Shown here: in pieces, positions 1 through 60,956 of the stretch
Numbering within the stretch: the stretch's first letter is position 1
How the letters are laid out: each line of letters begins with the position of its first letter
Notes under the pieces: generated by a model
Seen by the model: the letters and a program-made list of their open reading frames with translations, nothing else
Database searches by the model: none
What the model was told of the DNA's origin: nothing
Source of the DNA: Vermamoeba vermiformis
Lineage: Eukaryota
Length of the DNA: 64,000 nt
Assembly (NCBI GenBank): GCA_045837725.1
Contig: JBEWZL010000263.1
Coordinates: forward strand, 124,001-188,000
Direction of reading: 5' to 3'
Translations under genes and position numbers: made by a program

Positions 1-908
1 TTGAAGGTGCTGGGCGGTGTGTTGTCGCTGTCGTTCACTGAATCAGCACTGTCATTCACTGAACCAACACTGCTGTCACGTGTCACTGACTTCTGATTGG
101 TCGACTGAGCACGTGTACTCGGGTGCGGAGTGGCACTGTGACACGTGGACCAGCCATTGGTCAGTATCATCGGTGAGCTGTCAATCTGCAGCTCTGACGA
201 GTGACACGTGTCATCGTCCAGTCGCAACTTGTCTGGGTGAAGTCGCTGCGGGATGTCACGCGTCAGTTCGCACCCTGGCGTGCTGCCTGCAAACATGACA
301 CGTGACCGAGTGCACGGTGTGACAGGTGTTTCATGAACGACAGCATTTGACACGTTGACAGCGCTCACTGGCTGTTGCTCGTGATTGACACTCGAGACAG
401 GTCTCTTGTTGACACGGTGAGTGCCGCGCTGGTGCAGCAGTTGTTGCTGTTCAGTGATGTACTTGGTCTTATTGCCTAATATGGTGCGTGCTGTCTCGCT
501 GCGATGGGATTTCGGCTCGCGTTTGACAGTACGATGCGGATTGTTCCGTTGCTCGTGCACGCGGTGCTCATCGAGTCGTGTGTGTCGTGCAGTGCGAGCA
601 CGTGGTCGCGGTGACTGCGTGCTGTCAATGTCCTCCACGTGCTCGTTCGGAGCATTCAGCGCTTCGAAGGCTAGCTGGTGCAAGTGTTGCGCCAGGGGAT
701 TGTCTGATATAGCGTGTGGTACGTATATATCGCCACTTGCACTGGCATATTTGCGGCTGGGTATTACGCGGTGTTCTTGCTTCGGACGTCGTTTTCGAAC
801 AAAATCCAGAGAGAGCGTCTTGCCGTTGATGCACGGCTGAATATTCTTGGTACCAGAGGTGCCTAATAAACTCGATACAAATTTTCGATGCGCCTTATTC
901 GTACTCAT
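1..908 (-). CDS. Hypothetical protein, 5' part (runs off window start)
   Basis: ATG at 908 (MSTNKAHRKFVSSLLG...) opens a stop-free frame of about 302 codons to base 1. It is absent from the ORF track because it has no stop. Ser/Thr/His-rich, no family recognised. Confidence 0.65.
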   Translation of the reverse strand, partial: MSTNKAHRKFVSSLLGTSGTKNIQPCINGKTLSLDFVRKRRPKQEHRVIPSRKYASASGDIYVPHAISDNPLAQHLHQLAFEALNAPNEHVEDIDSTQSPRPRARTARHTRLDEHRVHEQRNNPHRTVKREPKSHRSETARTILGNKTKYITEQQQLLHQRGTHRVNKRPVSSVNHEQQPVSAVNVSNAVVHETPVTPCTRSRVMFAGSTPGCELTRDIPQRLHPDKLRLDDDTCHSSELQIDSSPMILTNGWSTCHSATPHPSTRAQSTNQKSVTRDSSVGSVNDSADSVNDSDNTPPSTF

Positions 909-1052
909 GGCTTGTGGTGTTGTGTCGCGCAAATGGCGTGTGAAAAACAAATTGCGCAGAATTTCTTAGAAATCATCTGTTTGAATTTGGCGCGAAACAG
1001 TGCCCACAGCTCTACCACACTGTATTGCCACAGACAGCATTAGATAATCAAT

Positions 1053-2010
1053 ATGGTAGGATGCACACGCGCAACTAGCGTGATATGCGTATCAGATCGC
1101 CATACTATTGCCTAATTAATGCACTACTAATCACCCTATTATCGCCGACTAGTGGCGTCAAGTCAACAAGCTAGCTGCTGCCACTGTGAGTTCACTGCGT
1201 GCTCCCATCCGCAGTACGCTTGCATCTCTCTTCGCTTCACGCGCATCACCGATTAAAAAACGAAACATAGTCATCAATAATATTACCAATATTGTACATA
1301 ACAGCAGACAATATTCAGAGATGAAGGCAAATGATCCGCGTCGGATCTTGCTCGATCTCGAAGCAGAAATAGAGCGCGAACGAGAGGAGTGGCGCCGTGA
1401 CCCCGAAGAGCAGCCGAATGAGTCGCGCTGGCGCAGGTACTGGCGACACGTGCGTCGATTTGCGCGTGCCCACGACCACCAACTGACCCACGTGCTGCTG
1501 GCGTGCGTGATCCTGGGCCTGGCACTGCGCCTGAGCAGCGTGGAGACGCGCCACGACGAGGAGGTGGAGACACTGCGCGCACTGCTGATGACACTGCTGG
1601 CCCTGGTGGAGGAGCAGTCCGTGCAGCACCAACTCGCGGTGAATGCTGAGCTGCAGGAACAGTTGACAGCTGTCACGACACGTGTCACTCAGCTGTCGGC
1701 ACTCAACAAGCAGCAGTTGACGCAGTTGTCACGTGATCTGCTGCTATTAATAGCTCAGCTGCAGGCACAGCTCAACCACGCCACACAACACGCGCACCAT
1801 TCACTGAACACCACCAGTCACGTGATCGCACAGCTCAATCACGTGCTCGACACGCGCAACAAACGACGCAGCGCCAAAAATAGCACGGACAACAATAATA
1901 GCAGTGCTGCGGCTAATAATAGCACCGCAGAGATCAGCGGAACAATTCCCAGCAGCGCACCGACCCCCGCACCAAATGTGGCAAAGAGCGAGGACGGGCG
2001 CGTGTTCTAA
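1053..2010 (+). CDS. Hypothetical single-TM coiled-coil protein, possibly mitochondrial
   Basis: ATG|gtagg intron 1056-1152 joins in frame to WRQVNKLAAATVSSLRAPIRS (R/S-rich, acid-free presequence-like). Hydrophobic VLLACVILGLAL is followed by L/Q heptads; stop 2010. Confidence 0.6.
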
Positions 2011-4516: not shown

Positions 4517-4625
4517 ATGTAGGTATGGTACAAGGCACCAACTGGTGTGTCTGTACATATGAGGCATTAGTATACATATTACTGCACCATTGGCTGATAA
4601 CAAACCACTAGTAACTGACATCCAG

Positions 4626-8463: not shown

Positions 8464-9509
8464 TTACTTCTTCTCTTTATTGGGCTTTACTTGCTCAGGA
8501 TCTACAGCAATAGATTTCATGTGCGGAATTACTTTCTTGTTGATCTGCTCACGCGTCAGCACCATGAACACACGACTGTCTTTGGTGTACGCAGCAAGGG
8601 TCATTTTATCTTCTTCATCGCTCGCTGGTCTCTTGCGCTCGCAGCTGAACATGCCAGCAGCGTGTTGGGCATAAGTGGCCTCTTCGAATCGATACCACTC
8701 CACTGCGCCTATTTTTAGCTCATTCGACACGCGCCGTTTCTTCTTCTTCGGTCCCTCATCCTCGTCCTCTTCAGGCAGGGGCTTAGTGACTGTGTACTGC
8801 GAGGTGATGAGCAGATAATATTCAAAGTCGTAGCTCTTCTGTCCGCTCTGCACGCAGCGCTCAATCTCGCGATGGAGATACAGATGCAGATGCGGAATGA
8901 GTTCGTCGGGCACATTGAGCAGCCGCTGATTGAGCACCAGTCCGACGCGTTCAGAGCTCAGTACCTTCTGCCAGAGTGCGCCCTGTTTGTTGTCTGTCAA
9001 CACACCGTGCTGCTGCGCGTTCTGTTTGACAAACGACAAGATCTGCTGGGTGCACTGCTGGTCGCGGTACTTGTGCACTGGCAGCGCGGTAATGTAGCCC
9101 ACGCCGTCATCCTCGCCCTCAATTTTGATGATGCTGCCGACAGGATTGTTCTCGCTCACCACGAGCTCAGCCAGCTCTCTGTTGTTGAAGGTCGGATCGT
9201 CGATCAGATCTGTCGCCAAGTTCTTGACCATGTGATAGTCTATCTCTGCTGGGTCCATGAACACAAAGTCTACTACGACTTCTTCTTGCTCTGCTTCTTC
9301 TTCCGAGCTCTGCATTATCGAGCATTACAATTAAAATAATTTTAAATGGATCCGGATCCAAAATAAATTAGAAACGAGTGCTGCAGTGAAATGTGATTAA
9401 TATCATTAATTAAATAAGCGTTCATTAACTCTAATGCTGCGCCATTCTAATGCTATTGTGCACGTACCTCCTCTGCCTTCTTTCGCTTTTTCGCGTTGTT
9501 GTCGCTCAT
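8464..9509 (-). CDS. BCP1: BCP1/BCCIP family protein
   Basis: VVDFVFMDPAEIDYHMVKNL, VGSIIK, VGLVLNQRLLNVP and FEYYLLI motifs; first exon MSDNNAKKRKKAEE|gt. Confidence 0.88.
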
Positions 9510-9650: not shown

Positions 9651-12002
9651 TTATTCCTCGCGCTTGAATTTCTCCGCAAATGCGACAGTATTGAGCAGTT
9701 GTGGGACAGCATCGAGCACGTGACTGGCGGGTTCCCACTGCCGCAAGAGCAGCACGAACTGATGCGTGTCTAAAAATAGCTGCAGTGACATCTTGTCCTC
9801 GTCGCTCAGCTCGCCAGTGCCACCACTCGTCACGCGCTTCATCTTGGCGAGGAATTCGTGCGTCTTGAGCACTGCTGCCACCTGACTGGCCACCAGGCCC
9901 TGGTAGAGATCACGTGACTCGCTCAGCACGCGATCGCGCCACTCAGCCACGACCACGTGCTGGCCCAACAGTGGCACTATCACGTGATCGAGCCACGTGC
10001 GCAGGGGCTGAAACGCGTCTTGTACATATAAGGAAGGTGCGGTGGGGGCTGCGCGGCCAGTGAGGCGATAGTGCCCTGGTATCTGCTTCAGCGACTGCAG
10101 GCCCTGGTTGATGGCACCTGTCACGTGCTGCACTACTGCGGGGGTCACGTGATCGATCAAGGCGCGTGTGTTGTCACGTGCGGCTGCCAGCATGCCAGCA
10201 ACAATGTCACGTGACAGCGGACCAATCACGTGCTCAATCTCCCGCGCGAGATCGTTCTCGATCTGAGCCTCAAGCCAAATATAGTCATGCAGTATGCTGA
10301 TCTTCGTGCTGACTGCTGTCACATCAGTTTTGGTCAGTGATTGGTCCACGTGACTGAGCACGTGACTGTGAAATTTGTGCAACAGTTGCAAAGAGAATTT
10401 GAGCAGTCGATGCGCTATCGATGCTAAAAATAGCTCTTTGTCCCAGCACTTCACCAGGGCACTCCAAATCTCGCGCGTGATCTCCATCGTACACTGCGGA
10501 GGTGCCTCGCTGACAGGTGTCGCGAGAGTTCTGACATGTGTCACGACAACATCACGTGACAGACACGTGTCGAGTGGCGTGCTCAGTTCGCGCAGACGCA
10601 GCTGACTGTACACTGTCACGTGCCAGCGTGCCACAAATGATCTATAATTAGCGTGCGCGCGGAACTCACTGACCTCGCTGGCACTGGTCATCAAGCGTTC
10701 AAACTGATCCAAAAATAGCATTGCGGCTGTGTAGTTCTGCAACGAATTAGCGACACGTGTCAAACACTGAACTCCACAACTTACCAAGTGAAATGTTGCA
10801 ATGATTCCCGAACTGAAAGCACGTGTCAGATCGAGCTCTAATCTCCGCGCAATCTCGGGCCAAATCACGTGGACCAACATGTTGTGTCCCGTCACGTGCT
10901 GCAGATCAATCAACACGCTGATTCACTGAATTAGTTCAGTACTAAAAATAGCTCAGCGCACTCACCGCAACTCCCGTTCAGTGAATTGAATCAGCCGGTC
11001 GAACAGTGGGCGCAAATCCTCCACGTCAATGCCCAAAAATAGCTTTTCAATGCGTGGTCGCACGAATTGACTTTGCAACAATTCATTGAGCACGTGACTG
11101 CCGTCCTCGAGTTGCCGATAGATTCTGACACCTGTCACCAATCTGTCAAATGGCGTCAAGTGCTCGCTGTGTCCTCCTTCCTTATTTGGCAATGGTGCCT
11201 CAGCCAGCACGTGCAGCATGATGCGTGCCAGCAGTGCCACCAGCTGCTGTTCAATGCGTTGAATGCGTTGCGCGTGTTTCAGCATCAGCGGCAGTTCTCG
11301 CACCGCGCGCACGTGATATTTGACACTTGTCACTTGATTCGCAATGCGTTCTAAAATGAGCACCTCGTCCTCGTCACTGTCCTCAGGGGGGTTGCCAAAT
11401 AAGGCAATCAACCGCTCCACCTGTGTGATGCTGTGTTCAGTGTCTAAAAATAGTCGCAACAATTGCTTTTTCGTGCTGAGTGCCTGTCGCTGCGTGAGTG
11501 TCACGTGCAACTGCTCCACGTGCGTGTCAATCACGTGACTGATCTCCGTCATATCTCCGTGCAGTGCCATCAGCTTGGGTCTGAGCAGTTGAATGAGTGA
11601 CAGCAAGTGATGCTGTCGTCGATGCAGGGTGAGGAAGTGCGCGTACTGGCTCTCAATCACGTGACTCACTGCCAGCGACAGCTTGTCGTGGTAGCTGATT
11701 GCAGGGCATATGTTAGCATCGTTGCTGCACATCACGCAGCTGTCTTACCTAGTGAGCAGTGTGACGAGTGCTGCGAGTGATCGATCAGGGCCAGTCATCA
11801 CGCGCAGTCGATTCACCAGGGCCTGCACACTCTGCTCCACACTGCTGCCTTGCGTGGTGTCGGACAGCGAGGCTTGAATCTCGGCTTCAATCCACCACTG
11901 CTCGGCACTCAGCGCAGTGCCTGTCACGTGACTCACTTTGTCGTCATCCACCAGGGCCATCATGCTCTCGAGCGAGGCACTTGCTGGTGTATTTGTGGAC
12001 AT
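9651..12002 (-). CDS. COG2: Conserved oligomeric Golgi complex subunit 2
   Basis: FSSGIIATFH, RWHVTVYSQLR, IPGHYRLTGRAAPTAPSLYV and SDEDKMSLQLFLD match the COG2 C-terminal domain; at least 3 introns. Confidence 0.85.
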
Positions 12003-12348: not shown

Positions 12349-12923
12349 TTAGAGGAGAGATTCGTATTTAACAGGGGCGATGGTTTCAATGTTAGCCTTG
12401 GCCTTGATAAATTGAGCAGCGGCGGGAGCTCCGGGAGTTCTCTTCAAACCAGTGGCTTTTTCTATAATTGAATAATCATAGATGAATATTGGTACGATAA
12501 TGATAACAAATAGTAGAACGAATATAAGTAAGGACGATCAGCTAAACAGATCTTACCTCCTTTCTTAAGAGCGCGCTTCTTGGCGTCATTCTCCTTTCGT
12601 CGCTTAAGGAATTCAACGTTGCTCTTGGAGGGGCGAACGTGTTCAATGCGAACGTGGATTCGCTTGGGGATGATGCGGTTCTTCACTTGTTTGTGAATCT
12701 CAACACCAATGGCGCGAGGAGTAACGTTCCAAACGCGACCAGTGCGGCCGTGGTAGTACTTGTGGGGCATACCCTTGTGAACAGCACCATTGCCCTTGAT
12801 GTCAACCAATTGACCAGTCTTGTAAATGTTCAAGTAGGTGGAGCTCTTCAAGGGACCGTTAGTACGGAAATCTCTTCTGAACAAGTATCTAGTGTGAGCT
12901 CTGTAACCAAACGAGTGAGGCAT
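12349..12923 (-). CDS. RPL21: 60S ribosomal protein L21
   Basis: [15 protein letters not shown]...[13 protein letters not shown]...[10 protein letters not shown]; last exon about 12460-12349; 5'UTR intron about 12924-13161. Confidence 0.97.
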
Positions 12924-13585
12924 CTAAATTAAAAAAAAAATAATTATTACCACGATATTAATTATTTTGATAACAGTAACAATCGGTCAGCAAAATTAAA
13001 ATATTATTATTATATTTCCATATTAATTGACCATATGATTATTGATTTAATAAGTGCTGATCGTTTTAATCCTCAACAGCTGAATCTACTCGTTGAACAT
13101 ATTCCTTGGGTTAAATACAAATGCAGCTTTCGGTTTTATTAGCTTCGCGTATTATAATTACCTTTAAGGATTATATGGGACCGCTGCTAAGTGAACAACA
13201 AATGACGATAACAAAGAAGATTGTTTTTTCTGCCATTGATAAATTTGATAAAAAAAACTGACCAATTGTATTGGTTGACCAGAAATTTCATTTCAAGTAG
13301 TTTCGCTAAGCCGGTATAATGACACCAACGGTCCTTGCATAGATCTATTAATAAGCTACTCAACCAATTGGTGATTTGTTGAGAGATTCGATTTTTTTCA
13401 GATGCGATCTGTTTCTTTCTCTACGAGGCTAAATAGTACTATTGATCTTATCTATAATTATAGTTAGTTTTATTTAATTGTCCTGATGGACAAATCCGTA
13501 GTTTTACATCGGGTATGCTTTGTACATATTGGTGAGTGAATAGTCGGGTGGGGGTATGGTTACTATGAACATCTATTTACAGTAA

Positions 13586-15720: not shown

Positions 15721-18328
15721 TTAACTCAAGAAGAGCTTGTTGATGAGCAGCAGCGTCATCTTCACATTGAGGGTGATGCGGTCTTCCAGCTCCAGCTCAG
15801 GCACGTTCTGTTCTTTCTTTTCGAGCAGCTCATCCAGCAGCAGTTGTTTCTTGGCGACAGAAATGCCAGCCATCTTGGCTTCAATATCGAACTTGCCCAT
15901 GTCAGGCATGGTGATGAAGAACTTCATCTTGCCTGCAATGCCGGGGTCACCTTCCTCAACGATGACACCCTTCTTCTGCAGCTCTTTGAAGGTGAATTTG
16001 AACGGCTTCTTCTTGCGCTGCTTCAACTTCTTGGCTGCGTTCTCGCGACACTTCTCCAAGTACTTCTCGAACTCGCTGATCTGCAGCGTGATGAACTCTT
16101 GGTGCGCCTTGACACTCTTCAGCGTGGCTTTCAAGCGCGCGACTTCACGGCGCTGTTGTTCGCGTCGCTCAGAGCGATTGATGACTTCGAGTGCCACGTC
16201 CTTGAGGAAGGAAGTGTAGCGATCTTCTTTGCTCACCAGGCCCTTCTCTTCCAACACCTTCAAGTTGTCCATGATCTTGTTGATGTTCTTGGACAGCTGC
16301 TTGTTGTCAGACTCCTTTGCGAACTCCTTGCCGTCCTTGAGCACGGTGATGAGGGTCTGATTCTGCGCGGGCTTGATGGGCACCACTTTGAACACTTGAA
16401 TCACCAGCTCTTTGGTGGTCTCGTACACATTCTCTTCGCTCACCAGACCTGCTTCCACATTGCTCTTGAACTTGTTCTCGAGGGTCAGTTGAATCTCGCG
16501 CTCAGTGTCCTCTTCGTCCTCTTTGGGCACCTCACCGAGGTCTGCCAAAATGTTGCGGAGCGGATCTGTCTTCTCGGGGGCGACTTGATCGGCATATGTA
16601 GTGAGCAGCGAGTGGATGTCAATCAACTCTTGAATGGAGACAATGATGATGGGCTTGCTCTTAATGGTGAGATCAATGTAGCGATTGACTTGCAAGTACT
16701 CTTCGGGATCAGACACATCCACCAAGTCCTGGAAGTAGCTGAGCACGGCAGGCTTGCTCTTATTGATCCACGTGTTCATGGCGTAGAACTCGTTGCTGGG
16801 CTTGAACTGACCGAACAAGAAGAGCGACTGCAGCACCTTGCTGATGGCAATCAACTTCTTGCGCACCACCACACTCGACATGTTCTTGTCACCCACGCCG
16901 TAGTCATCGGGCTGCACAATCATCGTGTTCACGAAGCGATAGAACGAGAAGTAGCCAATGGTTCTGAACACCTCTTCGGGCTTGGTCTTGGGGAATCGTT
17001 CGAGGGTGATGTTGCGGATCTGCTTGCAAATCAATCGCAGACCGTAGGGCAAGTTCTGCAGTGTGTTCAACATGGCATCGAGCACCTTTTGACACGCGTC
17101 AGTCAGTGTTGCAACGCGCTTCTGCACTTCAGCTTGCACGGTGGGGTCTTTCATGGCCTCTTCCTCGCTCACTGCACCACCACGCAACTTTTGGTAGATC
17201 TGCTCGTGCATCAGTGCCTGTGTTATCGCAGCCATAGTCACAGTCAGTACTTACAGTAGCAGCGTTGAGTTCCAAGCTCGACTCGTCCTCCACGAGTGAC
17301 TTCATGACGGGACCGAGCGCACTCTTCAAGTACTCGACGCCCTGTTTGCGTCTGTTGTAGGCAATCACCATGGTCGGAATCACTGACGCAGCACCAGCTT
17401 CTTGCAGCACATTGACATTGGCAATGTTCATGATCTCTTTGCGAATGGCCAAGCGGAACAACTCGAGCAAGAGATATTCTTCACGGGGACTGAACGCGTC
17501 ACCGAACAGCGTGAGCAACAGCTTGTCGAGCAATCGCTTCATCTGTTCGGGAGACACCACGTAGAGCAATTCAGCAAAGTACTTGGGCTCAGTCTGCAAG
17601 CTGTACAGCAGATGTGCGTACGACTCGAGCTTCTTGCGATCTTTGTCCAGACCGGGGTAAATTTCACCGCTTTCGTTCTGCTTGGGTTGCTTCTTGACTT
17701 TTTTGACTTTTTTCAACTCGCGGTCAATCTCTTGCACTGAAGTTCTGTTCTGAATCAGCAACGCGATTCGTTTTTCGAGCTTTTCCAAATCCAATTCGAG
17801 ATTTCTGTTGTGTCTAATTTCACGCACTAATTGACGCTTCAACTCTTGAATATCAGCAATAAAGTCCTGCTCCTCTTTGTCAGACATGTTGAGCATCAGC
17901 AAGTTGTGAATCTCAGCAGGCGACAGATTGCCGCTGCGAAGACGGTCCTTTTGCAGTCTATATTCAACCATTTCGCGCAACAACATGCGTGCTTCGAGGG
18001 TCATCATCAAGCACTTGCGTTCAGTGTTGAATACTTGCGCAGGTAACAACGCGGCAATCTCAGCATCAAGTCCAGTCTGCGGCACGCCAATGGGCTGCAC
18101 GTCGCGCAGTGATTCGAGAGCACGACGCTCCTCCTCACCACGATTGTTGCGTGGAGATTCTTCTGATGATGAGTCGTCCTTCTCTTCCTTGTGAGTATTT
18201 TTGTTTTTGAGTACGACTTCTTCTGAGCTTGATGAATCGTCATTGGAAGAGCTACTTTTTTTATTATTATTTGTCGCGTCATTATCGCGAGATGTTTTGC
18301 TTTCAACGGATTTTTCGGTATCGCTCAT
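15721..18328 (-). CDS. IQGAP-related RasGAP-domain protein (Dictyostelium RgaA/GapA type)
   Basis: LEKRIALLIQNR, LQTEPKY, FSPREEYLLL, LPYGLRLICKQI and FYRFVNTMIVQPD motifs plus RasGAP_C ending LLLINKLF; one intron near 17200-17253. Confidence 0.92.
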
Positions 18329-18684: not shown

Positions 18685-20057
18685 TTACACGGTGCTGACT
18701 TTGGGAGCGTTTTTCTTCGCGGCAACGGACTGCTCGTACTTGATCTGTCCGTACCAGATACTCGCTAGAGTGCTCGTACTCAAGCCCAATGCTGCAGCTA
18801 TAGTCATGGGCATACCACCGAATAAAAAGAAGCCCATGACAGTCGCTAAAATATTCTTGATCTGTCCAGTAATGGATGTGGTGAGCGGTGAGTTGACGAT
18901 TGAGCAGAGGAATATGAGGTAATTGAGCAAGAATGCTTGAACGGACGACATCAGGAAGCAGAACTATATGATAGCATATTAGTCATATTTACTGAAGTGT
19001 GCCGCGCACGTACCAAGAAGCCCAAATCCGTCCACTTATCGTACTGCAGTATGTCGCTGAGTTCCGTGAAGCCTACAATGACAACGTAGAGCGGGAATGA
19101 GAACAAGTTGTTGTAGAACATGAGTCCAAAGGTGTTGAGATTGGTCTGGTCCTTGGCGTCTTTAATCGCGAGCAAATAGCCCGCAGTGAAGAGACAGTTG
19201 ACGAAGATGAGCACGTAGCCGAGCAGATGGAATTCGAGATCACCCCACCCTGCTGCGATGGCACCTGTTGCGCGGTCAGTGAGAGGTCAGTGCGCGGGTG
19301 TCGAGTACAGTACCGATCAACATCAAGTAGATGGAGAACTGTTCATCACGCGGTATGACACGTGTCAAAAAGTGTTGTTCACCAATTAGCGTGATCCAAG
19401 TGGTCAAGCGACGCAGCACACTAGCGCAGGTCAGTCACACAGCCACACACACACACAGCAGCACGTACCTGTACATGGCAATGTTGACGTAGGTCAGACT
19501 GGCCAGGCCCGTGGTCACCATGCCACCAAAGCTCAGCGTCAGCCACTTGAGCTGCACAGAGGGGTCAGTGACACACTACTCGAGGACAGCGCGGCACTTA
19601 CCTTGTACGCAGTGGACCAGGAGAAGGCCGGGTATTCAATGAGACTAGTGCGCTTCATGCCCTCCAAGAAGAGCAGCGAGAAGAACATTTGACCGAGTGC
19701 GAGTGTGTTGGCGTAGGGGAAGTGGTAGTGTGAGAGCACGGCTTTGTTGAAGATGGTGATGCTGATCGATACAACGCCTGCAACGAGGGGTGTTAGTGCG
19801 GTGCATTCAAGGGGTAGATAATGTGGTGTTAGTGTGCAGATACTCCGCTGACGTCAATTACAAAAATAATTAAAAATAATTTAAATTCTGACCAAATATA
19901 AAATTGAGCTGCCTTCAATAGCAAGCTGAATATCAATAATTGCGCACATAATTAAATAAATTTTACCATAAGCGATCGCTACAGCCAGTCCAACATATTG
20001 ACCCAAGAACTGTCTCACTACACGCGGTATCAGTTTGTTAGCTCTATCTTCTTCCAT
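18685..20057 (-). CDS. Nucleotide-sugar transporter (SLC35D/GONST-like)
   Basis: ITIFNKAVLS, MYSVLRRLTT, GLMFYNNLFS and VNSPLTTSITGQIKN motifs; multi-TM; about 5 introns. Confidence 0.88.
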
Positions 20058-20229: not shown

Positions 20230-21894
20230 TTAGTGCTCGTTCAAGTGCAAGCGATGCGTGTGCAGCGAGAGTTCCAAGTCCTGCACGACACTCAGGGCCC
20301 CCAAGAGCTGTTCGCACTGTTTGACAGCTGTCACCTCTTCATGAACGACGCCGCTCAGACTGGACAGCATGGCACTCACTTCGCTCCACTGCGCGCACAG
20401 GTCAGTACGTGGCACGTGATACCAGAGTGCGACACTTACCTTGTCGAGCTGTGCACTGCTGTCACCAATCACGTGCTCGAGATCAGCACCGCACTCGTTC
20501 AGTGAATGCAGCACTGAGTCGTCGAGTGTCACGTGACTGACTGGCATGCGGTGCGTGTTGTACTGCAGCACAGTGGACAGCTCTTCGTAGCGTGTCAAAC
20601 TGTCACTCGCACAGCTGTCCACGTGCTCTACCAGGGCACTGAGCTGCGCGTTGAGCAGTTCTTCGAGCAGATAAATCTCCTGCTTGAGCTCCAAGTCACT
20701 GCGATCACGTGACACTGCTGTCTTCAATTCGCTCAATCGCTCGTGCGCGGTGTGAATCAGTTGCTAAATAAGGCAAGGTGTCAGTCACGTGCCTCGAAAC
20801 AGTGCCAGTCCGTACCTCAGCGCGCAGTTGTCGAGCAGCGAGTGCGTGACTGAGCTTGGCATTCACAAAGCACCACTGCAACAGCGCCGTGTTGAGCAGT
20901 GACGTGTCAGACCTGTCACTGGCTGGCACTGACGACAGCACGGGGGACACGTCACTCTTCTTGCTGTCACTCGGCACTGTGACACGTGTCGTCGAGGTGC
21001 TGGGTGCGGAGGGGCGTGTGACAGCTCTGTTGATGGGTGCCGTGGTGGTGCGTGTCAAAGTGCCACTGACGCGCGTGCTGGTGACAGCTTTGACAGTGCT
21101 GGTGCTGGCACGCAGCTGTGTTCTATTAATAGACGCGGTGTTGTCAATGCGCTGCAGACTGCTCCGTGCAGGTGCCTCGTTGACAGGTGTCGCAGTGACA
21201 CTCGCAGTCGAGTCACGTGGTGCAGTCTTGGAGGGAAATTCCGCCGACTGACTGGTGATGGAGGCACGTGACGCGAGTGAGGTCCGAGCCCTGGCTGTGA
21301 GAGCGGTGAGTGACAGGTGTCAAACAGTGGTGCGTACCAGTGAGGGATTGGCCGTAGTCGAGTCGTCGCTTGGTGGCACTGGGGGGCTGTGCGGCCGTGG
21401 TGGATTTGACTGGCACCGTGCTGGGGGGCAATGTTAGTGCTAACATCGAGGGGTACATATATATATATGCGCGTCCTAGTGTCGAGTGCACTGCTGTGAC
21501 GTACCTCTTCACATCGCGCTTCTTCTCTGCGCTGCGTGTGGGCGTGGGCTGCATGTAGCGCGATTGCACGTACTTGACTGGCATGATGTGAGTGTGGGTA
21601 CGAGAGGGGTGTAATAGCGAGGTATAGAATGCATATAGTACTGCACTGCTATGTACTACTCACCTTTGCGAGCACTGCCCTTGCTAGCGCTCTTAGAAGC
21701 AGAATTGCTCTCCTCAGATTTGGTCTTGTTCGAAGGGGGAGTCATAGGCACAAATCCCGTATTCTCGCGTCCTGTAAATATGGCGAATTTATCTGCATCG
21801 AAATCGTCGATCAGATCTGTTGCTGGAGGGAGATGAAGATCGTTAGTGCTGAAGAAGTGCTTCAATGAGTGGTCTTACTCAGTAACTCCGTCAT
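20230..21894 (-). CDS. Augmin subunit 8 / QWRF-like protein
   Basis: VQSRYMQ motif, S/T/R-rich linker, LLQWCFVNAKL (QWRF-like) and a C-terminal helical region. Upstream exons from ATG 21894 splice in frame. Confidence 0.65.
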
Positions 21895-23255: not shown

Positions 23256-24011
23256 CTACAATTTAATGGTGTACAGTACACAAAAACTGCTCTCAGCCCA
23301 CTTGGCCGGACTGTCAGAGCCCAACACGCTGGTCCGCTGCTCCGCACTCCTCAATTCTCCGCCTTTCCTTTTTAGGCGCGTGCGAGCGTTGGCGTACCAC
23401 ATGGTGACCTGTTTGACACTCAGGCCAGTCAGCGCACTCACGCGCTCGCGCACACTCGTCGTGGGATAGGGCTCGCTGTCAAAACCTGTCAATGACGTGT
23501 CAGGTGCGCAGAGGTCAGCAGATGACACGTGTCACTCACAGAGCTTGAGATATTCATCGACCAGGGTGCGCTGTGCCACCGTGATCACGTGACAAATCTT
23601 CGCGCACAGCAGTTGTTCCATTTGATGTCCGAATTGCAGCATGGCCTATATAGGAATGTTAGACAAAGTGGTGCAAGTGTCAGTGTCACGTGCCAGCAAT
23701 CACGTGTCCATTACCTGGTCCAGTGGTTTCGCGCCTCCAGGCCCACAGTGAGTGCCGTGTAGTCGACAGAAGACAACATATCTCTGAGCTAGAGTTCATC
23801 AATCAGTGTCAGTCAGTACCCCCCACACACAGTCCCCTACCTTCCTCTCGTATCTGTTCTTCACATCTTCGAACATCGCGTCTTGTTCCTGCACGGCAAT
23901 GCGGATCATCTCGCGCTGCAGGGCGGTGAGGCACTCCAACTCCAAGCCGAGCTCAGCGAGCAGTGCATAGACGATCTTCAGTCCGCGCGTAGGTCTGTTG
24001 GGTATTGTCAT
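23256..24011 (-). CDS. Atypical TALE-like homeodomain protein (HD-A)
   Basis: Spliced ITVAQRTLVDEYLKLCFDSEPYPTTSVRERVSALTGLSVKQVTMWYANARTRLKRK with a helical N-terminal region. One internal splice donor is uncertain. Confidence 0.8.
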
Positions 24012-47458: not shown

Positions 47459-51312
<3,854 letters not shown>

Positions 51313-51386: not shown

Positions 51387-52756
51387 ATGGGATTAAGATC
51401 AAAGATAACGCTAATAGTGCTCATTGGGTTGATTGCGACTGCATTAGTAAGCATAGCGTAATCTTCAGCTAGATCTGCCGTTTAACAACCTAATTTATTA
51501 ATTACCAGTCACGAGATTTTCCATGCCCGTTCTCAAGAGTATTAAGCCTGCAGAACCCTCCACTAACGGGTAATATTTCCACAACTATATTTTATGTTGA
51601 ATTTCTCAGCGCCAATATACTATCATCGAATTAATTACCGTTAATAATTCACAAATACTGTTAAAATTACAACTGTAATTTTCAGGGCCGGATGTGCGCG
51701 TGTTACAAAATTTGCTCAACAGATCCTCTTTCGTTAAGCCTGCCGTTGCTATTACAATGAACTACGACCAAGACACTGCCCACGCTGTCAAACAGTTCCA
51801 AGTTGGTCACAAATTGTACGTATTCTGTGCCGTGCCATCCAGTTCACTCACATTCGCTACAGACGCGTGACGAAAGGCGTGGTTGAGCAGCGCACTGCAG
51901 ATCTGTTGCTCAAGTTGCACACTGACGACCATTATACCGATGATGGCAGTATATTGCCGGGCTACAAGTACAAGGTGAGTGCGCTGACACGTGTCAAACA
52001 CAGACCGACACTGACTGATCACGTGCTCAGGTATACTTGCCGGTATATCGCAATCGATCGATCGAGACCAAGGGCACGCTGTTCGATGCCACCATGCAGC
52101 CGCTGTTCACCTTCCACGCACGGGCTCACGGACAGAACGACGCGCACGGCAACGCACTCGGCATGGTGGGTATTTGACACGTGTCACAGTACAGGTCAGT
52201 GATTGACACGTGATGGCAGTTCTGTTCGAGTGGCAACACCCCGACTGGTCTGTTTGAATTTGACTTGAACTCACCCGGTACGTGTCCCTGCAGCTATTAT
52301 TAGATCGGTGTATATTGACCTCCCCCCGCAGAGGATGATCCAGTCTCGTTTGGTCCCTATCCCGTCAATCGTGTCACCAATGGACTGCGCGGCAATGGTT
52401 TTGTCACCACGAATGACGTCCGCACTGTGCGCAATGGCATCTTGCTGCACACTGGTGAGTGCTCGAAGTGACACGTGTCACTAGTAGTGCAGTAGAATTG
52501 ACGCGATGACAGGTGAGTGGCAGAACTGGACCCCCTCGCAGCCAATGCCCAACTCGAACGGCTGCATCCACAGCCACCCTGACGAGATCAAGCAGGTAAT
52601 GTGGCGCTGTCGTCTTTGCGTCATTCTTCTCATGCCTGGTAATAGATTTGGCATATTCTCGTGTCTTTGGGCGTACAAGTGCGCAATAATACCGATGGCA
52701 AGCTGCCTTATCCGTACAAACCTCAAGGCTTGATCTCGATCGAGCAACAGGATTAG
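51387..52756 (+). CDS. Secreted peptidoglycan-binding-domain + YkuD/L,D-transpeptidase-fold protein
   Basis: Signal MGLRSKITLIVLIGLIATAL; PGBD-like RVLSLQNPPLTGPDVRVLQNLL...TAHAVKQFQ; then GNTPTG and GILLHTG-x11-NSNGCIH; about 8 introns. Confidence 0.78.
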
Positions 52757-52888: not shown

Positions 52889-55800
52889 ATGAGTACACCA
52901 CAAGACTGGAGCAGTTACGAGTCAGATACACTGCCACGTGCTGAATCAGCCACTACATCGAGCAGTCGCTACACTACAACGAGCGGCAGTAACGATACTG
53001 ACACCTCTGGGTATCATTACGCGACGGATGCAGATCTGAGAAGCATGGATTACGGCGATACTCATGAAGCGTCCAATAATAATACCCATGATCATATTGA
53101 AGATCATGGCACTTTAAAGGATAAGGATCGAAGTCACCTCGACTTTGAGATGAAGGGATCTGACAAACTCGTTTGGCACAACAAGTTTATTCAAATAATG
53201 GACGAATTAAAAAAAGTTGACGTCAAGAATACCCTGCCTTATAGTGAACGAGAGCGCATCTGGCGGGAGTTGGGAAATTTGGCTAAGGTAATTAAATTTT
53301 CAATAATTTCGTTTAATTTAATTATTTATTTCACTTGTTATCGCGCATTTAATTGTGTTTGATTATTTATTCAATTATATCATGATGGCGCGAGCTGATT
53401 TAATGTCACACACTACCGCAGGATTTCCTCTACGCCGCGCAGACCTACGGCAAGATTATCATCAGCGAAGTGTTCTTGCCGAATGAAAAGAAGACTATAG
53501 CACCCATCACTAACAAAGGAATATGCGGCGGTGAAAAGTGAGCGATCAGATCACGCCATTACAACCGCACTAACAGCCTTGTCTAGATACATCGTGAACT
53601 CGATGCTGTTCAAATTTGCAGTCGATCACCGCCAGTTATTTGCAGGCGACGAGACAGCGACGATCAAAGTGGCAGGACTGGATCTGGTGAGTCTCAACTA
53701 CTGGACCGAGCACGGCCGTCAAGTGGGTCTGTTGCCCCCGCTCTCCGTGCTGCTCGACTACCGCGGCTTCAGAGTGCTGGCCCAGGCCATCTTGCCGCTC
53801 GGTCCTGAGTCCCTCAAGTGCGGCAGTGCTGATGCTGGTGAGCACGTGATCAGTCCTCCCCCCGCCCTCGCTGGTACGCACTCGAATAGTGTCGCATTCA
53901 ACGGCTCTAACTGCAGCCCCCTAGACAAAATATCACACTGCGCGAAACAGCTGAATCTGAAAGAGCACTACGTCGTGCAGCGGTCCATTGATGTGCCCAC
54001 CAGCACGAGCTCGCCGTACCTCAACACCAGTGCCGTGACAGGTGTCAATAACAGCAGCGATGATTTGACGCAGATACACGCTGAGGCCTACAATCAGAGC
54101 AACAGTTCGCTGCTCGACGATGACGCGCAGCATCAACTGACCAATCAGAGCACTGCGCACGATGAGACACAGCGCTACGCCCTGCCATCGCTGAATATGA
54201 CACTAGTCAAGGTACACGCGGCCATTGACCTCGAGTTCCATCAAGGCACTGATGGGCGCTATTACATGTTGGACTTTTCGCGCAGTTTCCCGCCACAAGA
54301 TGCGCACATTCAATCGCAGTACGTGCAGGCAATCAACACGCTATTAGTACGAGCTCTATAATAACTGTCATTATTACAGTGTCAAAATGCGACACTTGTT
54401 CAAATTGCTGCGCCCTGAATTCGTGCGACACTACATGAAGCCACTCAATGCTGACGCCTATTCCAAGTTCATTCGCATTGACAAGAGTAAGCGGCAGTTA
54501 AATTGATGTCACTCTTGCTGACTATATTTAGAAAATATTCCCATGACTGACGATGAGCTATCACGTGTCGTAGAACTTCGTCAACAACAAATCTCCGACG
54601 AGCGAGATATCTCCGAGGCCACGCGCCACTTGATTGAGGTCGTGGTGCCCAAATTCGTGCGCCGATTCAAGAAGATTCACTCGCTGTTGGGCCACACTGA
54701 GCGCCACTTGTTTGCGCGCCACTGGTTCTACATCTTCTTGCACTTCTACGGCATCAACACGCGCATGTTGGGGTTTGTGCGCGGGCTCGTCAAAGTCGAG
54801 GCTCTGTTTGCAGGCGAATCAGACTTCATCCCGCGCGGTGACTCGTACATCTCGATCGAGTTCATCACGGACAAGCTGCGCAATATGAGTGGCAACACCT
54901 CGCGCGGCTCACTCATGAACAGCTCGGACTCGGCAGCGCTGTCATCGACTCCGACCAGTGCGCGCACTGACACCTCACAGCGCGCCAATTACGCATTCAC
55001 GATGAGCAGCTGGTCGATGATACTGCTGATCAAAATGTTGGCGCGGTGCATCAAGAACAAAATCCGACAAATGTTGCGCGATGAAATGCGACGCGTCAAG
55101 TACATGGGCGAGCGACCCTACATAGAAGCAGTGGTCAAGTCCCTCAATCTCATCTTCGGAGATCACGCGGCCTCAGAGGAGTACTGGCAAGGCACGCTGA
55201 AGCCAGTGTTGGAAGAGCAGTTCTTGAGTGCCCTCACGCCCGAAGAGCAGGCCATGTCCTCGCTCAAACACTACATTCGCGAGTTCCCGTGCTACAACTA
55301 CTACATGGTCGATGTCAAGACTGGCCGTCATCAGCCCGACACGATCAGATCTAACGGCCTCTGTCTCTTGTTCTCCGAGGTCGTGGATCTGCTCGGACTC
55401 ACTTTCAATCAGAGCTACAAACAGTTCGCGACCAATGCTGATCTGTTCAGCTACGAGCAGCCCTTCGATGTGATGGATGTCGTGACTATCAACGAGAAGA
55501 TTAAGACCATTCACGTCCTCGCGCATTCGCAGGGTGTCGTGCTCAGAATGCGCGCCAATGCCGCTGAAAAGACGAGAGGTAAGTAACTTGAGGTCTAATT
55601 TTAGCTCATCGGTCACTTGCAGGCAGTGAATTCGCTCGCAGTTTGTACGAGGCATCATTGGACTATGTAAGTAGCACAATACACTGTACGAGCCATGCTG
55701 ATATCAACCAGTTCCGCATGAGTCTCAAAGCCATGCCACGTGATCACCGCACTTGGCGCAACACCGCGGATGTGTTTCAACAACTCAAATTCTACAACCT

Positions 55801-56425
55801 CGCGGAACTGTTCTACATCTTCAGCTTGAAAGGTGAGTCCTATTGGTCACGTAACAATATCTAATGCACTGGCCCAGTGCTGCCCACGGAGAGTGTGACG
55901 CTGTACAAGTTGGCGCACTTCTACGCTGATTGTCGCAACAAACACAAAGAGGCCGAGCAGAAGTTCAAGGTACGAGTCTACTAGTAGTAGTGCTGTGAAA
56001 CAATTGCAGCACTCTGTTTGACCCTTTGACGATTATGACACCTGTCACAGGAATCACTCGCCTCTGAGCCCACAGTGGTGGCTACAGTCGGTCTCGTGAC
56101 ACTGCTCAGTCGTGCTGGTCGCTTGCAAGAGGCCCACGCGCTGTTGACCGAGGCACGAGTCACGTGGTCGGACAGCTGGGCCCTCGAGTGGCACACTGCA
56201 CGCACCTTGGTGCAGCTCGGTGACATTCAGGGCTCAGTGCCGCACATTGAACGCGCACTGCAGCTCGGAGCCCCGTCATCGCTGATTGTGCCTGACTACA
56301 ACGCCCTGCTCGATCGGGTGGGTGATCCATTGGGCGAGGTGAATATTCGCTTGCCCGTACCCGAACAGGATCACTTGTCATCGATGGATCTCACTACGAC
56401 CTTCCGATTCATGAAAAAGAATTAA
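52889..56425 (+). CDS. Clu-domain protein with C-terminal TPR-like repeats
   Basis: DFLYAAQTYGKIIISE, GGEKYIV..MLFKFA, LLDYRGFRVLA, GSADAG, GTDGRYYMLDFSRSFPP, LLRPEFV and LHFYGINTRMLG motifs. Confidence 0.85.
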
Positions 56426-58229: not shown

Positions 58230-58367
58230 ATAAAGTGTAAATATTTAAACATGATTTAATGTTACTGTACAACAACTAAGACTAGCTTCTAATTCCTGAA
58301 AAAACTATTTACAATCTGTACATCAGAACTGACTACATCAGTTACACTGGCCAATGTCATGATCGAA

Positions 58368-60956
58368 TTATTCGACAGAAGGAACTTCAACGGCTTCAGG
58401 TTCAGCATTTTCACTCTTTTCTACGATGTTTTCTACGGTGTTTTCGACCTTTTCTTGCACAACCTCTTCCACTTTGGCCTCGGTATCTTCTTTCTTTTCT
58501 TCGGTCTTCTCTTCAGTGGTATTGGCATTGGTATTGTTTTCAATCTGGTTCGTGTTGTTGACTGCTTCGGCGAGCTTTTGTCTGTTGATCGAAAAACTCT
58601 TCAAGTCAATCACGAGCACACTAATATTATCAGTGCTGCCGTGATCCAAGGCGTAGTTTCTCAGCCTCTCAGCAGCAGCTTGCATGTCGGTCTCATCGCG
58701 AATCAAGTTGACAGCTTGTTGATCGCTGATCACATCCCACAGACCATCACAAGCTAAAATCAATAACTCATCGGTATCATTAATCTCGTGCTTGATGATG
58801 TCAGGCACTGCAATGACAGGTGTCAATAAGGCATCACCAATGGCTCGGGACACGGAAAGCAATCCTTTGACACGACCACCGTTCACGAATCCTCCAGCTT
58901 CTTTGATACGCTTCAATTCATCAGGATGTTCTGCAAGCATAATTAGTCATTGTACAGCATTACATTGTGAATTATACGTACCAGGCTTGTGATCGGTTGA
59001 CAAGCGCTGAGCTTTGCCAGCTTGAGCCAACACAACACGACTGTCACCAACATTGGCAATGTAGAAGAAGTGGTCGATAAAGTATGCTGAGAGAGCGGTG
59101 CAGCCAACATACTTGGCCCAGCCCTGAATCGAGCGATCAATCTCCACGTAGGCTTGTGTCATGGCCTCGCCAATCTGGTCTTCACCGAGTGTTGACAACT
59201 TGTGCTTGAGACACACAGCGAGAGACTTGGCGCAGTAATCTGCGACTTCACGCCCTCCGTGACCATCTGTTCAATGGCGTTAATTCGCGATATTAAAGCT
59301 TGAGATAACTTACCAAATAAGGCAAACAAATCTTCGTTGTCTTTCTCGCGGAACTGACCGTGCACAATGACTGCATCCTCCATGGACTCGCGGCGACCAA
59401 TCGTGTCACTCAGACCGAAACGGAAGCGATTGCTCAGAGTGACTTTGGGGAACTTTTCAAAGTTGACAAATGCCAACCACTAGCGATGATTAGACACGAG
59501 TGTTAAGAGCTGTGATGACACTTACTGGGAACTCCTCCAAGGGATCAAGTTGTTTCTTGGGTCCAGTCTTGGAGTAACTGCGATTGAATCTATTTGGCGG
59601 GCTTGAAGGACTCGTGCTGAGGTTGGCGTTGGAGCCAGCATTGGTGTTGTTCTTGTTGATGATTCGTGTGCGACTGATTGCGTGTTTGCGACGATAAGGC
59701 ACGGCATTCAAGAGGTCGTCCATGACATTGGTGATCGAATAGTTGCGCTCTAGCAGCTTCTCGACCTCGTTCATATGCGCTGCGGACAATTTGTTGCCTG
59801 AAATAAGGTCGTCAGTGTCCTGTCACGTGACTACTAGTGAATGACAGGCGTACCGTCCAAGTCAAGTCCAATCACGTGATAATGCGCGTCCAAGAACTGC
59901 TTGATGAGCTCGAGACTGGCGTCAGTCAACGCGTTGTTCTTGAGATCAATGTGCCGCAACACATCGTTCATGTCGCTCTTCAGTGCCTCGACGACTGCAT
60001 CACTCAGCTTGGTGCCGCGGAGGTGCAGTGCTTTGAGCGAGTTGTTCTGGCCCAGCGCACCGAAGATAGACTCGGCCACGTGATCACCGAGTGAATTCTC
60101 CGACAAGTCTAGCGTGTAGAGCGATGCGTCTTTAACGAGCGAGACCAACTATGATAAATAATAATTGTCATCAGAATCAGAAGAATTAATGCAAAGACTA
60201 GCGTGAAAATTATTAATAAAATTGACCTATTCATAGCTGTATAATTGATATAATATTGACAATATTCAAAATTATATGATCGTATGCATACCGATTCTCC
60301 AGCCGCAGAGGTGATGGAACAATTTACGAGGGACACATCCGTGATTGCTAAGTGTTCTAATAATACACGGGTTATAAATAGGCTATCGATTAATGCTTGT
60401 GCCATACTTACTTTTAATTGTTTCACATAGCGCAATAGCAGCGACGTCGCCTAAATACGAATTTTCAAGAGAGATCGCAAAAGTTCTTTTGTCCGCAGGA
60501 ATTGCTTGAAGTGCATTATATAGTGTATCGCCGGCCTATTAATATTGCTATTTAGTCGTGGTTATACGCGATTCACAATGAGCTCATTAATAATTATAGC
60601 TGATCTGAATTTCCATTATTATTATTTTAAATACTAGAACATCGATCTTATTCGCAAGATCGTGACCAACAATCGTCAATAATCCATATAAAAGTATATA
60701 GTGAATAATATAGGCCTGTTGTATTGAAAAGATTCGATAAAATACCTCGTTGCTTCTTGCATCTGGCTTCGTCTTTAACAGCTCGGTATATCGTTCACGG
60801 AAAGTATTCAATATCTTAGCTGCCTCTACATATGCAAGAAAATCAAGGTTAAAAATCCTTCAGCGAGAAGCGACTTTGAAATTGAATCCGCCGATCCGAC
60901 AGAATCTTACCTTCATTTGATACCTTCCCAAATATCTTACTGAAAAATCCACCCAT
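58368..60956 (-). CDS. RNI-like LRR + PP2C protein phosphatase
   Basis: MGGFFS start (possible myristoylation), LRRs (LDLSENSLGD, IDLKNNALTD), then MED, FDGHGG, ANVGDSR, DHKP, ACDGLWD and GSTDNIS motifs. Confidence 0.88.

Follow-up and report, generated by a model that had tools for sequence, protein, structure and literature searches.

Short exact palindromes iterated in gene bodies of a 64-kb stretch of the Vermamoeba vermiformis genome

A 64-kb stretch of the nuclear genome of the amoeba Vermamoeba vermiformis (assembly GCA_045837725.1, contig JBEWZL010000263.1, positions 124,001 to 188,000; hereafter the window, numbered from its first nucleotide) carries short, exactly repeated DNA words in the exons and introns of a subset of its genes. 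The palindromic 12-mer TGACANNTGTCA, two TGACA half-sites facing each other across two nucleotides, was the word originally described. It is a minor member of a larger vocabulary, in which CACGTG is the dominant word and other words share the same distribution. The words are set at the nucleic-acid level against codon usage and have shifted protein composition. The host is a eukaryote with spliceosomal introns, not a cyanobacterium, and the distribution of the words is patchy by gene.

Enrichment and architecture of the 12-mer

The window contains 32 exact copies of the 12-mer, all at the coordinates originally predicted. They are listed below with their predicted context, and those in the COG2 gene also with the corresponding reading in a relative (see below).

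202..213, TGACACGTGTCA, labelled exon of the minus-strand gene 1-908, phase D-T-C-H
1664..1675, TGACAGCTGTCA, labelled exon; coding-like open reading frames (ORFs) on both strands make the strand uncertain
10532..10543, TGACATGTGTCA, COG2 exon, V-T-H-V; the relative reads TATCCCATGTCA
11126..11137, TGACACCTGTCA, COG2 exon, V-T-G-V; 4 of 12 bases differ in the relative, without an indel
11321..11332, TGACACTTGTCA, COG2 exon, V-T-S-V; 1 base differs in the relative
19356..19367, TGACACGTGTCA, predicted 205-nt intron (uncertain model)
20322..20333, TGACAGCTGTCA, exon, V-T-A-V
21311..21322, TGACAGGTGTCA, labelled exon, L-T-P-V
23523..23534, TGACACGTGTCA, minus-strand intron 23486-23539, 5 nt past the intron start; folds back to pair with a near-copy at the intron 3' end
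24988..24999, TGACACGTGTCA, exon 1 of the gene 24969-26974, V-T-R-V
25325..25336, TGACAGCTGTCA, exon, V-T-A-V
25976..25987, TGACACGTGTCA, exon, second phase, D-T-C-Q
26099..26110, TGACACGTGTCA, exon, second phase, D-T-C-Q
26209..26220, TGACAGGTGTCA, exon, V-T-G-V
26892..26903, TGACACGTGTCA, exon, V-T-R-V
29592..29603, TGACAGGTGTCA, the sole 12-mer outside any predicted gene
30637..30648, TGACACGTGTCA, minus-strand intron 30605-30661, 13 nt past the intron start
32274..32285, TGACATCTGTCA, exon, V-T-D-V
34898..34909, TGACACCTGTCA, minus-strand intron 34893-34954, 5 nt ahead of the 3' splice site
36614..36625, TGACACGTGTCA, predicted intron 36579-36660
36936..36947, TGACACGTGTCA, exon, L-T-R-V
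38267..38278, TGACACGTGTCA, intron 38258-38310, 9 nt past the intron start
38431..38442, TGACACCTGTCA, intron 38422-38473, 9 nt past the intron start
38736..38747, TGACACGTGTCA, intron 38729-38777, 7 nt past the intron start
39186..39197, TGACAGATGTCA, spans the predicted 3' splice junction of intron 39141-39191 (TGACAG, junction, ATGTCA)
50165..50176, TGACAGGTGTCA, exon of the GH2 beta-galactosidase-like gene, V-T-G-V
51985..51996, TGACACGTGTCA, intron 51975-52030, 10 nt past the intron start
52175..52186, TGACACGTGTCA, intron 52166-52219, 9 nt past the intron start
52469..52480, TGACACGTGTCA, intron 52455-52523, 14 nt past the intron start
54036..54047, TGACAGGTGTCA, exon of the CLU-domain gene, V-T-G-V
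56036..56047, TGACACCTGTCA, 3' end of the predicted intron 55970-56050
58814..58825, TGACAGGTGTCA, exon of the PP2C-domain gene, L-T-P-V

Fifteen copies have CG as the central dinucleotide (TGACACGTGTCA), as originally counted; ten have GG/CC, three GC and four another. Base composition predicts 0.066 copies, close to the initial estimate of about 0.06; 100 dinucleotide shuffles gave a mean of 0.19 and a maximum of 3, whereas analytic Markov models predict 0.21 to 0.66 at orders 1-4, 1.30 at order 5 and 4.35 at order 6. Orders 7-8 memorise a 64-kb sequence and are uninformative. Coding nulls were run on 51 coding-like ORFs (28,326 nt), which hold 18 of the copies: 300 protein-preserving synonymous shuffles contained 1.13 on average and five at most, a dicodon (codon-level first-order Markov) model predicts 1.12, and codon permutation 0.02. 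The enrichment is robust to every null tried, and the codon- and dicodon-preserving ones, named in the original prediction as a possible refutation, did not abolish it.

The architecture of the word is equally constrained. A spacer of two nucleotides is strict, in that every other spacer from 0 to 24 yields between 0 and 3 sites, and against the 32 inverted arrangements of TGACA there are two everted and nine direct-repeat ones. Among all palindromes of the form 5-NN-5, the TGACA arm alone is exceptional (32 sites, 0.52 expected from half-site counts). Exact copies outnumber sites with one mismatch (23), and sites with two mismatches number 55, whereas chance predicts a ratio of 1:30:405. The half-sites TGACA/TGTCA are themselves in excess in the coding ORFs, at 192 against 91 after synonymous shuffling and 68 after codon permutation. 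General palindrome formation, as by template switching, was considered and rejected, non-TGACA palindromes of the same form numbering 95 against approximately 78 expected.

As predicted, copies fall in different reading frames and in introns. In coding sequence, 14 are read as xTG ACA nnT GTC Axx (V/L-T-x-V) and four as D-x-C-Q/H, the only two phases available because the third would be a stop, and 12 copies are intronic. The claim of a signal at the DNA level stands insofar as the signal belongs to nucleic acid and not to protein, given the codon and dicodon nulls, the intronic copies and the choice of codons described below; a role in RNA is a rival to its more specific part. Neither did shared flanks expose the copies as footprints of miniature inverted-repeat transposable elements (MITEs). 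Self-BLAST of the window found repeats at 4.4-5.4 kb and 8.1-8.3 kb alone, none covering any 12-mer, and the flank weight matrix is flat except for K (G/T) at -1.

CACGTG and the wider vocabulary

Almost all of the commonest words of 8 to 12 nt in the window are based on CACGTG or TGACA/TGTCA. CACGTG occurs at 159 sites, against 14 expected from composition, 25-32 under Markov orders 1-2 and 66 under order 3. Since just 15 of these sites lie inside a 12-mer, and 10 of the 38 CAGGTG/CACCTG hexamers do so too, the 12-mer counts as a separate word, not as a side effect of CACGTG. Further recurrent words are TTCA-S-TGAA (21 copies), CTAWWWWTAG (14) and CCTAATTAGG (six, against 0.01 expected).

Coding ORFs contain 104 CACGTG sites, compared with 40.9 ± 4.5 after synonymous shuffling and 16 ± 3.9 after codon permutation. 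They occupy all three phases (52, 40 and 12) and are read inside genes as His-Val, x-Arg-x or Thr-Cys/Trp; their flanks favour T at -1 and A at +1. No periodic spacing of CACGTG or CpG was found in the window, apart from a weak modulo-3 effect. Of the hexamers one step away from CACGTG, its transition neighbours CATGTG/CACATG are the scarcest, with 18 seen against 69 expected at order 1 and 37.6 at order 2 (observed/expected 0.26 and 0.48, respectively). General avoidance of CATG was rejected as the cause of this depletion, its observed/expected ratio being 1.06.

Hexamer counts over the whole window yielded some additional observations. The palindromes above expectation are CACGTG (6.4-fold), TAATTA (5.6-fold) and ATTAAT (4.9-fold); TAATTA is limited to introns and intergenic DNA, with no exon copies. 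Below expectation are CCCGGG (0 against 2.9), AACGTT (3 against 18), GCATGC (7 against 36) and CCTAGG (1 against 4.8).

Effect on codon choice and proteins

Peptide contexts able to accommodate a word tend to be written with it. Motif-rich genes use CACGTG in 96 of 125 capable contexts, a figure whose contrast with motif-poor genes is partly circular, given that the classes are defined by CACGTG density; free of this circularity are the results for the 12-mer, used in 14 of 17 capable contexts, and for six control hexamers, used in 5-30% of theirs. Under the same proviso, His-Val occurs 56 times in motif-rich genes against 18.2 expected, and is written CACGTG in 50 of these cases (codon usage predicts 52%), compared with 15 occurrences against 13.5 expected in motif-poor genes, seven of them written CACGTG.

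The proposal that such words reshape proteins is borne out by COG2. In 148 distant COG2 homologues (23-36% identity), histidine makes up 1.91% of residues (maximum 3.77%) and there is 0.12 His-Val per 100 amino acids (aa; maximum 0.57), with 121 dipeptides seen against 129 expected. The COG2 proteins of four clade members have 5.5-6.2% histidine and 2.2-2.6 His-Val per 100 aa. COG2 in this clade, which numbers at least five species, is thus threefold richer in histidine and 20-fold richer in His-Val than its distant homologues.

Compartments and introns

Compartments were defined with our own simple gene predictor, which assigned 36.2 kb to exons, 10.1 kb to introns and 17.7 kb to intergenic DNA and yielded 119 introns, mostly of 41-62 nt. 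RNA reads and contigs support minus-strand GT..AG introns of 95, 238 and 55 nt; the predictor recovers the RNA-supported introns 12462-12556, 14737-14944 and 17200-17254, misses the 238-nt intron of RPL21 and makes at least one false call (10613-10669). Subject to the uncertainty that this lends to all compartment counts, 17 of the 12-mers are exonic, 12 intronic, one intergenic and two across a splice junction (0.47, 1.18 and 0.06 per kb in exons, introns and intergenic DNA), whereas CACGTG has 112 exonic, 32 intronic and 12 intergenic sites, with three across a junction (3.10, 3.16 and 0.68 per kb). Relative to introns, intergenic DNA has 4.6 times fewer CACGTG and 20 times fewer 12-mers, and composition is not the cause, because G+C is nearly equal in the two (0.427 and 0.407). 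The original description of the 12-mer as saturating exons and introns was too strong: its density ranges from 0 to 3 per kb from gene to gene, and words are 5-20 times rarer in the DNA between genes.

Within introns, eight of the 12 copies begin 5-14 nt past the intron start. In four of nine short introns with a palindrome, the 12-mer folds back on a near-copy located at the branch point or the 3' splice site, and the mean folding z is -1.07 in these nine introns compared with -0.05 in 57 word-free ones. Introns overall have no excess structure (mean z -0.19, n = 76).

Splice signals share elements with the vocabulary. Intron 3' ends carry the fixed modules CCTAATTAG, CTATTTTTAG and TGACAG, the latter two directly before the splice site (examples are introns 25370-25438, 39141-39191 and 49017-49065), GTACGT is common as a 5' splice site, and GTGAC/CTGAC resemble branch points. 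CTATTTTTAG also has eight exonic copies, and in COG2 it always encodes Leu-Phe-Leu with identical codons. Three places in COG2, all on the minus strand, deserve mention. The 57 nt at 10613-10669 have full intron signals (GTGAGT, GCTAAT, TATAG/GACAG) and are part of the protein in all five relatives, among them P0002, which derives from mRNA (EVSEFRAHANYRSFVARWHVT), so that they form an intron-like exon. Conversely, 10737-10784 is a 48-nt intron, in frame and stop-free, through which the genomic ORF calls (window and P0001) read, whereas P0002 is without these 16 residues; it has TGACACGTGTCG where the relative has an exact 12-mer. Finally, 12003-12139 is a candidate intron of the COG2 5' untranslated region (GTAAGC...TTTCAG) that ends right at the ATG and is AT-rich and word-free, unlike the introns in the coding part of the gene.

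Genes of the window and differences between them

Pfam matches identify COG2, BCCIP, an endonuclease/exonuclease/phosphatase (EEP)-family protein, a RasGAP/IQGAP-like protein, Nup54, a clathrin adaptor sigma subunit, a GH2 beta-galactosidase, CLU, PP2C, phospholipase B, ELO and ABHD18. Among named proteins, the IQGAP-like one is closest to Balamuthia mandrillaris rgaA (46% identity). Rfam and tRNA scans of the window gave no match, nor did a protein search with a 354-aa ORF. The genes on which the comparison turns are as follows.

8464..9509, minus, BCCIP gene, adjoins COG2; 0 CACGTG
9651..12002, minus, COG2 gene, the densest carrier; 27 CACGTG (11.5 per kb), 25 in exons
12349..13200, minus, RPL21-like gene; 0 CACGTG, 0 12-mers
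15721..18328, minus, IQGAP/rgaA-like gene; 1 CACGTG and no 12-mer in 2.6 kb
24322..24579, plus, TALE (KN) homeodomain exon of MEIS/TGIF/PKNOX type; candidate reader of TGACA half-sites
24969..26974, plus, gene with 19 CACGTG, six 12-mers and 41 half-sites in 1,749 nt of coding sequence
EEP-domain gene; 3 CACGTG

CACGTG density per predicted gene varies from 0 to 11.5 per kb (chi-square 153.7, 31 degrees of freedom, p 3e-18), and correlates with the density of 12-mers (rho 0.73) and of half-sites (rho 0.64). Intron density was rejected as a correlate of word density (rho 0.09). COG2 contains three 12-mers, and 19 of its CACGTG sites are read as His-Val; the gene 24969-26974 had no Pfam match on the one ORF scanned (25755-26435). 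As originally stated, RPL21, the IQGAP-like gene and the repeat region at 4-8 kb are devoid of 12-mers; a bHLH gene listed with them was not found in the window, either by basic-region pattern or by Pfam on 40 ORFs.

The introns of word-free genes are AT-rich (G+C 0.28-0.38), compared with an intron G+C of 0.46-0.58 in word-rich genes; those of the RPL21-like gene measure 95 and 238 nt. Expression does not sort the two kinds cleanly. In low-depth RNA reads from a strain 95-99% similar, the word-poor RPL21-like gene is very highly expressed (90-150x coverage) and the IQGAP-like gene is covered 1-3x, whereas BCCIP and the EEP-domain gene, also word-poor, are as weakly covered as COG2. BCCIP moreover matches COG2 in its rate of divergence (79% nucleotide identity with the relative).

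Several features of individual genes were noted in passing. The 4-8 kb region is AT-rich and word-free and contains inverted and direct repeats of 32-98 nt at 4441-5407 and 8083-8260 (for example, 4785-4864 and 5246-5328, 93-94% identical); its ORFs lack Pfam matches, and no transposase domain was found in this region, which had earlier been taken for a transposon. All three raw-read runs have many read joints between opposite strands in the RPL21-like gene (12681-13197), which may be cDNA snap-back artefacts of an abundant transcript. The IQGAP-like exon 15706-17259 is open on both strands (517 aa plus, 509 aa minus), with a RasGAP match and strong coding statistics in the minus frame alone. 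At 48832-51312 (plus), this amoebozoan encodes a LacZ-type GH2 beta-galactosidase (LacZ_4, Bgal_small_N) interrupted by short introns.

Comparison with relatives

Two contigs of a relative (L001 and L002) align to 8526-14461 of the window at 78-88% identity. CACGTG is retained there at 18 of 30 sites (60%), compared with 36% of all hexamers (Fisher p 0.007), and 18 of the 20 CACGTG sites of the relative are shared, leaving 12 private to the window and two to the relative. The gene pattern is also the same: the covered parts of the relative have one CACGTG in BCCIP, 18 in COG2, none in the RPL21-like gene and one in the EEP-domain gene. At conserved COG2 His-Val positions, 28 of the 30 His and Val codons are unchanged, compared with 574 of 956 other synonymous codons (p 8e-5), and seven of 12 His-Val positions are invariant across five species with 79-86% protein identity.

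None of five 12-mers is common to the window and the relative, whose nucleotide identity here is about 80%, and TGACA half-sites are conserved at background level (12 of 26, against 42%). All five orthologous comparisons are gap-free near-matches, with 1, 1, 1, 3 and 4 substitutions, and the words therefore arise by substitution and not by insertion. CACGTG is thus kept even at synonymous positions, whereas 12-mers turn over quickly. That the 12-mers are abundant yet seldom conserved in position suggests that new ones are born at a high rate, through a bias in fixation or conversion, and not that old sites are retained. A simple mutational sink, as originally invoked, predicts retention, which the 12-mers do not show; CACGTG, by contrast, is retained.

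Likeness to known systems

The analogy drawn with dimer sites of TALE proteins proved correct as far as architecture goes. The crystal structure described in PMC6158717 has two TGIF1 homeodomains on ATTGACAGCTGTCAAT, and the TALE dimer site TGACAGCTGTCA has the same half-sites, orientation and 2-bp spacer as the 12-mer. A gene for such a protein lies in the window itself: the homeodomain at 24322-24579 matches PF05920 (E 3.5e-20), its best PDB matches are MEIS1/2, TGIF and PKNOX1, and its recognition helix (helix 3) reads NWFINARQR, compared with NWFINARRR in solved relatives. This homeobox gene (24100-24600, plus) is located centrally within the motif-rich stretch of 19-40 kb. Unlike the TALE site, the 12-mer mostly has CG (15) or GG/CC (10) at its centre and GC just three times. 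Its frequency of about one per 2 kb is also unlike that of a TALE cis-regulatory site, as is its placement, with 17 of 32 copies exonic and one intergenic, and 0 of 5 shared with the relative.

CACGTG is the core of the E-box and G-box bound by bHLH, bHLH-ZIP and some bZIP proteins; unlike such sites, it occurs 159 times in 64 kb here, and up to 11.5 times per kb inside a coding gene. In Neisseria and Haemophilus, DNA uptake sequences are words of 10-12 nt that reach about one copy per kb, also in coding DNA, via a fixation bias and not because each site has a function. They are non-palindromic and depend on natural competence, and to our knowledge nothing comparable exists in an amoeba.

The closest parallel is with the highly iterated palindrome HIP1 of cyanobacteria (GCGATCGC), which PMC4390886 ties to orphan methyltransferases (see also PMC13756078). 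Like HIP1 as described there, the amoeba words are short exact palindromes far above expectation, present in coding DNA irrespective of frame; HIP1 is evolutionarily conserved, words overlapping it are the next most enriched, and its function and origin are given as unresolved (PMC4390886), which again resembles the situation in the amoeba. Unlike HIP1, the amoeba words are several, reside in a eukaryotic nuclear genome with spliceosomal introns and are limited to the gene bodies of a subset of genes; the 12-mer turns over, whereas HIP1 is conserved, and HIP1 has cognate orphan methyltransferases (PMC4390886), none being known for the amoeba words. Accordingly, the words work like HIP1 and are not members of the HIP1 family, and the original term HIP-like is fair in the first sense, with the reservation that the amoeba system is eukaryotic, multi-word and patchy by gene. 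Coding-embedded iterated palindromes have so far been described in cyanobacteria alone. Our search of the literature, supplementary files (which might hold k-mer tables) excepted, found no description of TGACACGTGTCA as a genomic motif and none of such iterated words in an amoebozoan or other eukaryote.

Discussion

The explanation that we tentatively prefer, while giving it a little less than an even chance, is a lineage-specific vocabulary of short, exact, duplex-symmetric words that are recognised by dimers and fixed by biased conversion or by selection. The vocabulary would comprise CACGTG, (K)TGACA-SS-TGTCA(M), TTCA-S-TGAA and others, in the exons and internal introns of a subset of nuclear genes. 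By analogy with known proteins, each word would be read on duplex DNA by a dimeric sequence-specific protein: the 12-mer by two TALE homeodomains of MEIS/TGIF type, one of which may be that encoded in the window, and CACGTG by a bHLH- or bZIP-like dimer or a modification enzyme. The 12-bp palindrome, strict spacer and steep mismatch profile of the 12-mer together suggest the footprint of such a dimeric reader. Exact words would reach fixation more often than near-matches, owing either to biased repair or gene conversion of near-cognate sequence or to selection favouring gene bodies dense in bound sites; the depletion of CATGTG/CACATG fits a repair bias in favour of CACGTG. The differences between genes and the scarcity in intergenic DNA suggest a coupling to gene-body chromatin, or a role in the transcript.

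Several considerations weigh against this explanation. The evidence comes from a single 64-kb window and approximately 6 kb of one relative, and the contrasts in CACGTG between rich and poor genes are partly circular. A genome-wide drive leaves unexplained why adjacent genes differ so widely (0 to 11.5 CACGTG per kb) and why the relative has the same gene pattern; indeed, BCCIP is weakly expressed and evolves fast, like COG2, yet has no CACGTG. A process linked to transcripts would agree with the scarcity in intergenic DNA, and so would one linked to gene-body chromatin. Perfect palindromes, being strand-blind, are compatible with a role at the RNA level. The absence of shared 12-mers among five is a small sample that matches neutral decay (about 0.5 expected), and the retention of CACGTG could be explained by ordinary purifying selection for some function.

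Among the alternatives, words acting in pre-mRNA, through splicing, folding or recognition by RNA-binding proteins, would account for their confinement to gene bodies, with CACGTG about equally dense in exons and introns and depleted in intergenic DNA. Self-complementary copies would pair with each other, and intronic copies with the branch-point/3' splice-site module TGACAG, as suggested by the position of eight of 12 intronic 12-mers near the intron start, the stems in four of nine short introns with their lower z, and the recurrence of CTATTTTTAG, CCTAATTAG and TGACAG at 3' ends and of GTACGT at 5' splice sites. We nevertheless regard this as unlikely: non-palindromic words are, on small counts, nearly symmetric between sense and antisense (CTATTTTTAG 5:3, TTCACTGAA 4:7, ACTGCGCG 7:5, GTGCTGCA 6:7), introns overall show no excess structure, word density does not track intron density, the AT-rich candidate 5' intron of the COG2 transcript is word-free, and a lone 12-nt palindrome forms just a 4-bp hairpin. 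Quite unlikely, in our estimation, is a strictly HIP1-like process in which a methyltransferase and T:G-mismatch repair restore CACGTG from its deamination products. It leaves out the 17 12-mers that lack a central CG, the CpG-free words and the differences between genes, and the window yielded neither a methyltransferase nor a repair gene, its one ORF with a methyltransferase domain, 40615-40878, matching general small-molecule families. What speaks for it is that CATGTG/CACATG are the most depleted neighbours of CACGTG while CATG is not depleted, that His-Val in motif-rich genes is CACGTG 50 times and CATGTG once, that coding CpG is at par (observed/expected approximately 1.0), and the link of HIP1 to orphan methyltransferases reported in PMC4390886.

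Ordinary cis-regulatory TALE and bHLH sites, controlling their host genes or nearby ones such as the TALE gene at 24.1-24.6 kb, are improbable even though the 12-mer matches the classical TALE dimer site (PMC6158717), the TALE gene lies within the motif-rich stretch and CACGTG is positionally conserved. Against such a role stand up to 27 sites in one gene, mostly in coding exons and at a cost in amino-acid changes; sites are rarest in intergenic DNA, where promoters lie, exact 12-mers outnumber one-mismatch sites, and no 12-mer of five is conserved in position. Two further possibilities were tested, were not supported and are, in our judgement, highly improbable. One is that composition, codon and dipeptide usage and splice-signal words suffice without any special process. 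TGACAG is indeed a frequent intron end, GTGAC/CTGAC are branch-point-like, and a dicodon model, which itself contains the His-Val codon pair, gives 89.5 of the 104 coding CACGTG; yet the 12-mer nulls of 1.3 for the window (32 seen) and 1.12 and 1.13 for coding ORFs (18 seen), the excess of coding CACGTG over synonymous shuffles and codon permutation, and the strict 2-bp spacer speak otherwise, and His-Val is not enriched in motif-poor genes or distant COG2 homologues. The other is the footprint of a mobile element, be it a MITE, an introner or an in-frame 12-bp insertion. Twelve nucleotides are divisible by three and many carriers are uniform introns of about 50 nt, but no repeat family occurs at any site, the flanks are uninformative, and the five orthologous comparisons are gap-free, with 1-4 substitutions.

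Returning to dimer-recognised words, a bolder form of this explanation is a eukaryotic HIP-type molecular drive, which is possible but doubtful. In it, dimeric readers in an amoebozoan clade would turn near-matches into exact palindromes with the help of repair or conversion in gene bodies, perhaps across many genome copies; by analogy, a TALE protein of MEIS/TGIF class would read TGACA-NN-TGTCA and a second factor or modification enzyme CACGTG, and the process would fix nearly every synonymously reachable site in susceptible genes and alter proteins, with the threefold histidine and 20-fold His-Val of COG2 as its outcome. If true, DNA-word pressure, and not protein function, sets part of the composition of the proteome. 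The window is a clear example of nucleic-acid pressure altering the make-up of proteins, with consequences for codon models, selection tests and the prediction of genes in such genomes; its exons hold complete intron-like signals. Iterated palindromes embedded in coding DNA have been a cyanobacterial puzzle for 30 years, and a counterpart in a eukaryote would free the phenomenon from a necessary link to bacterial restriction-modification biology. The present case offers contrasts that could isolate the cause, namely introns, chromatin, word-rich and word-free neighbouring genes and several related species, with the TALE homeodomain of the window as a directly testable candidate reader.

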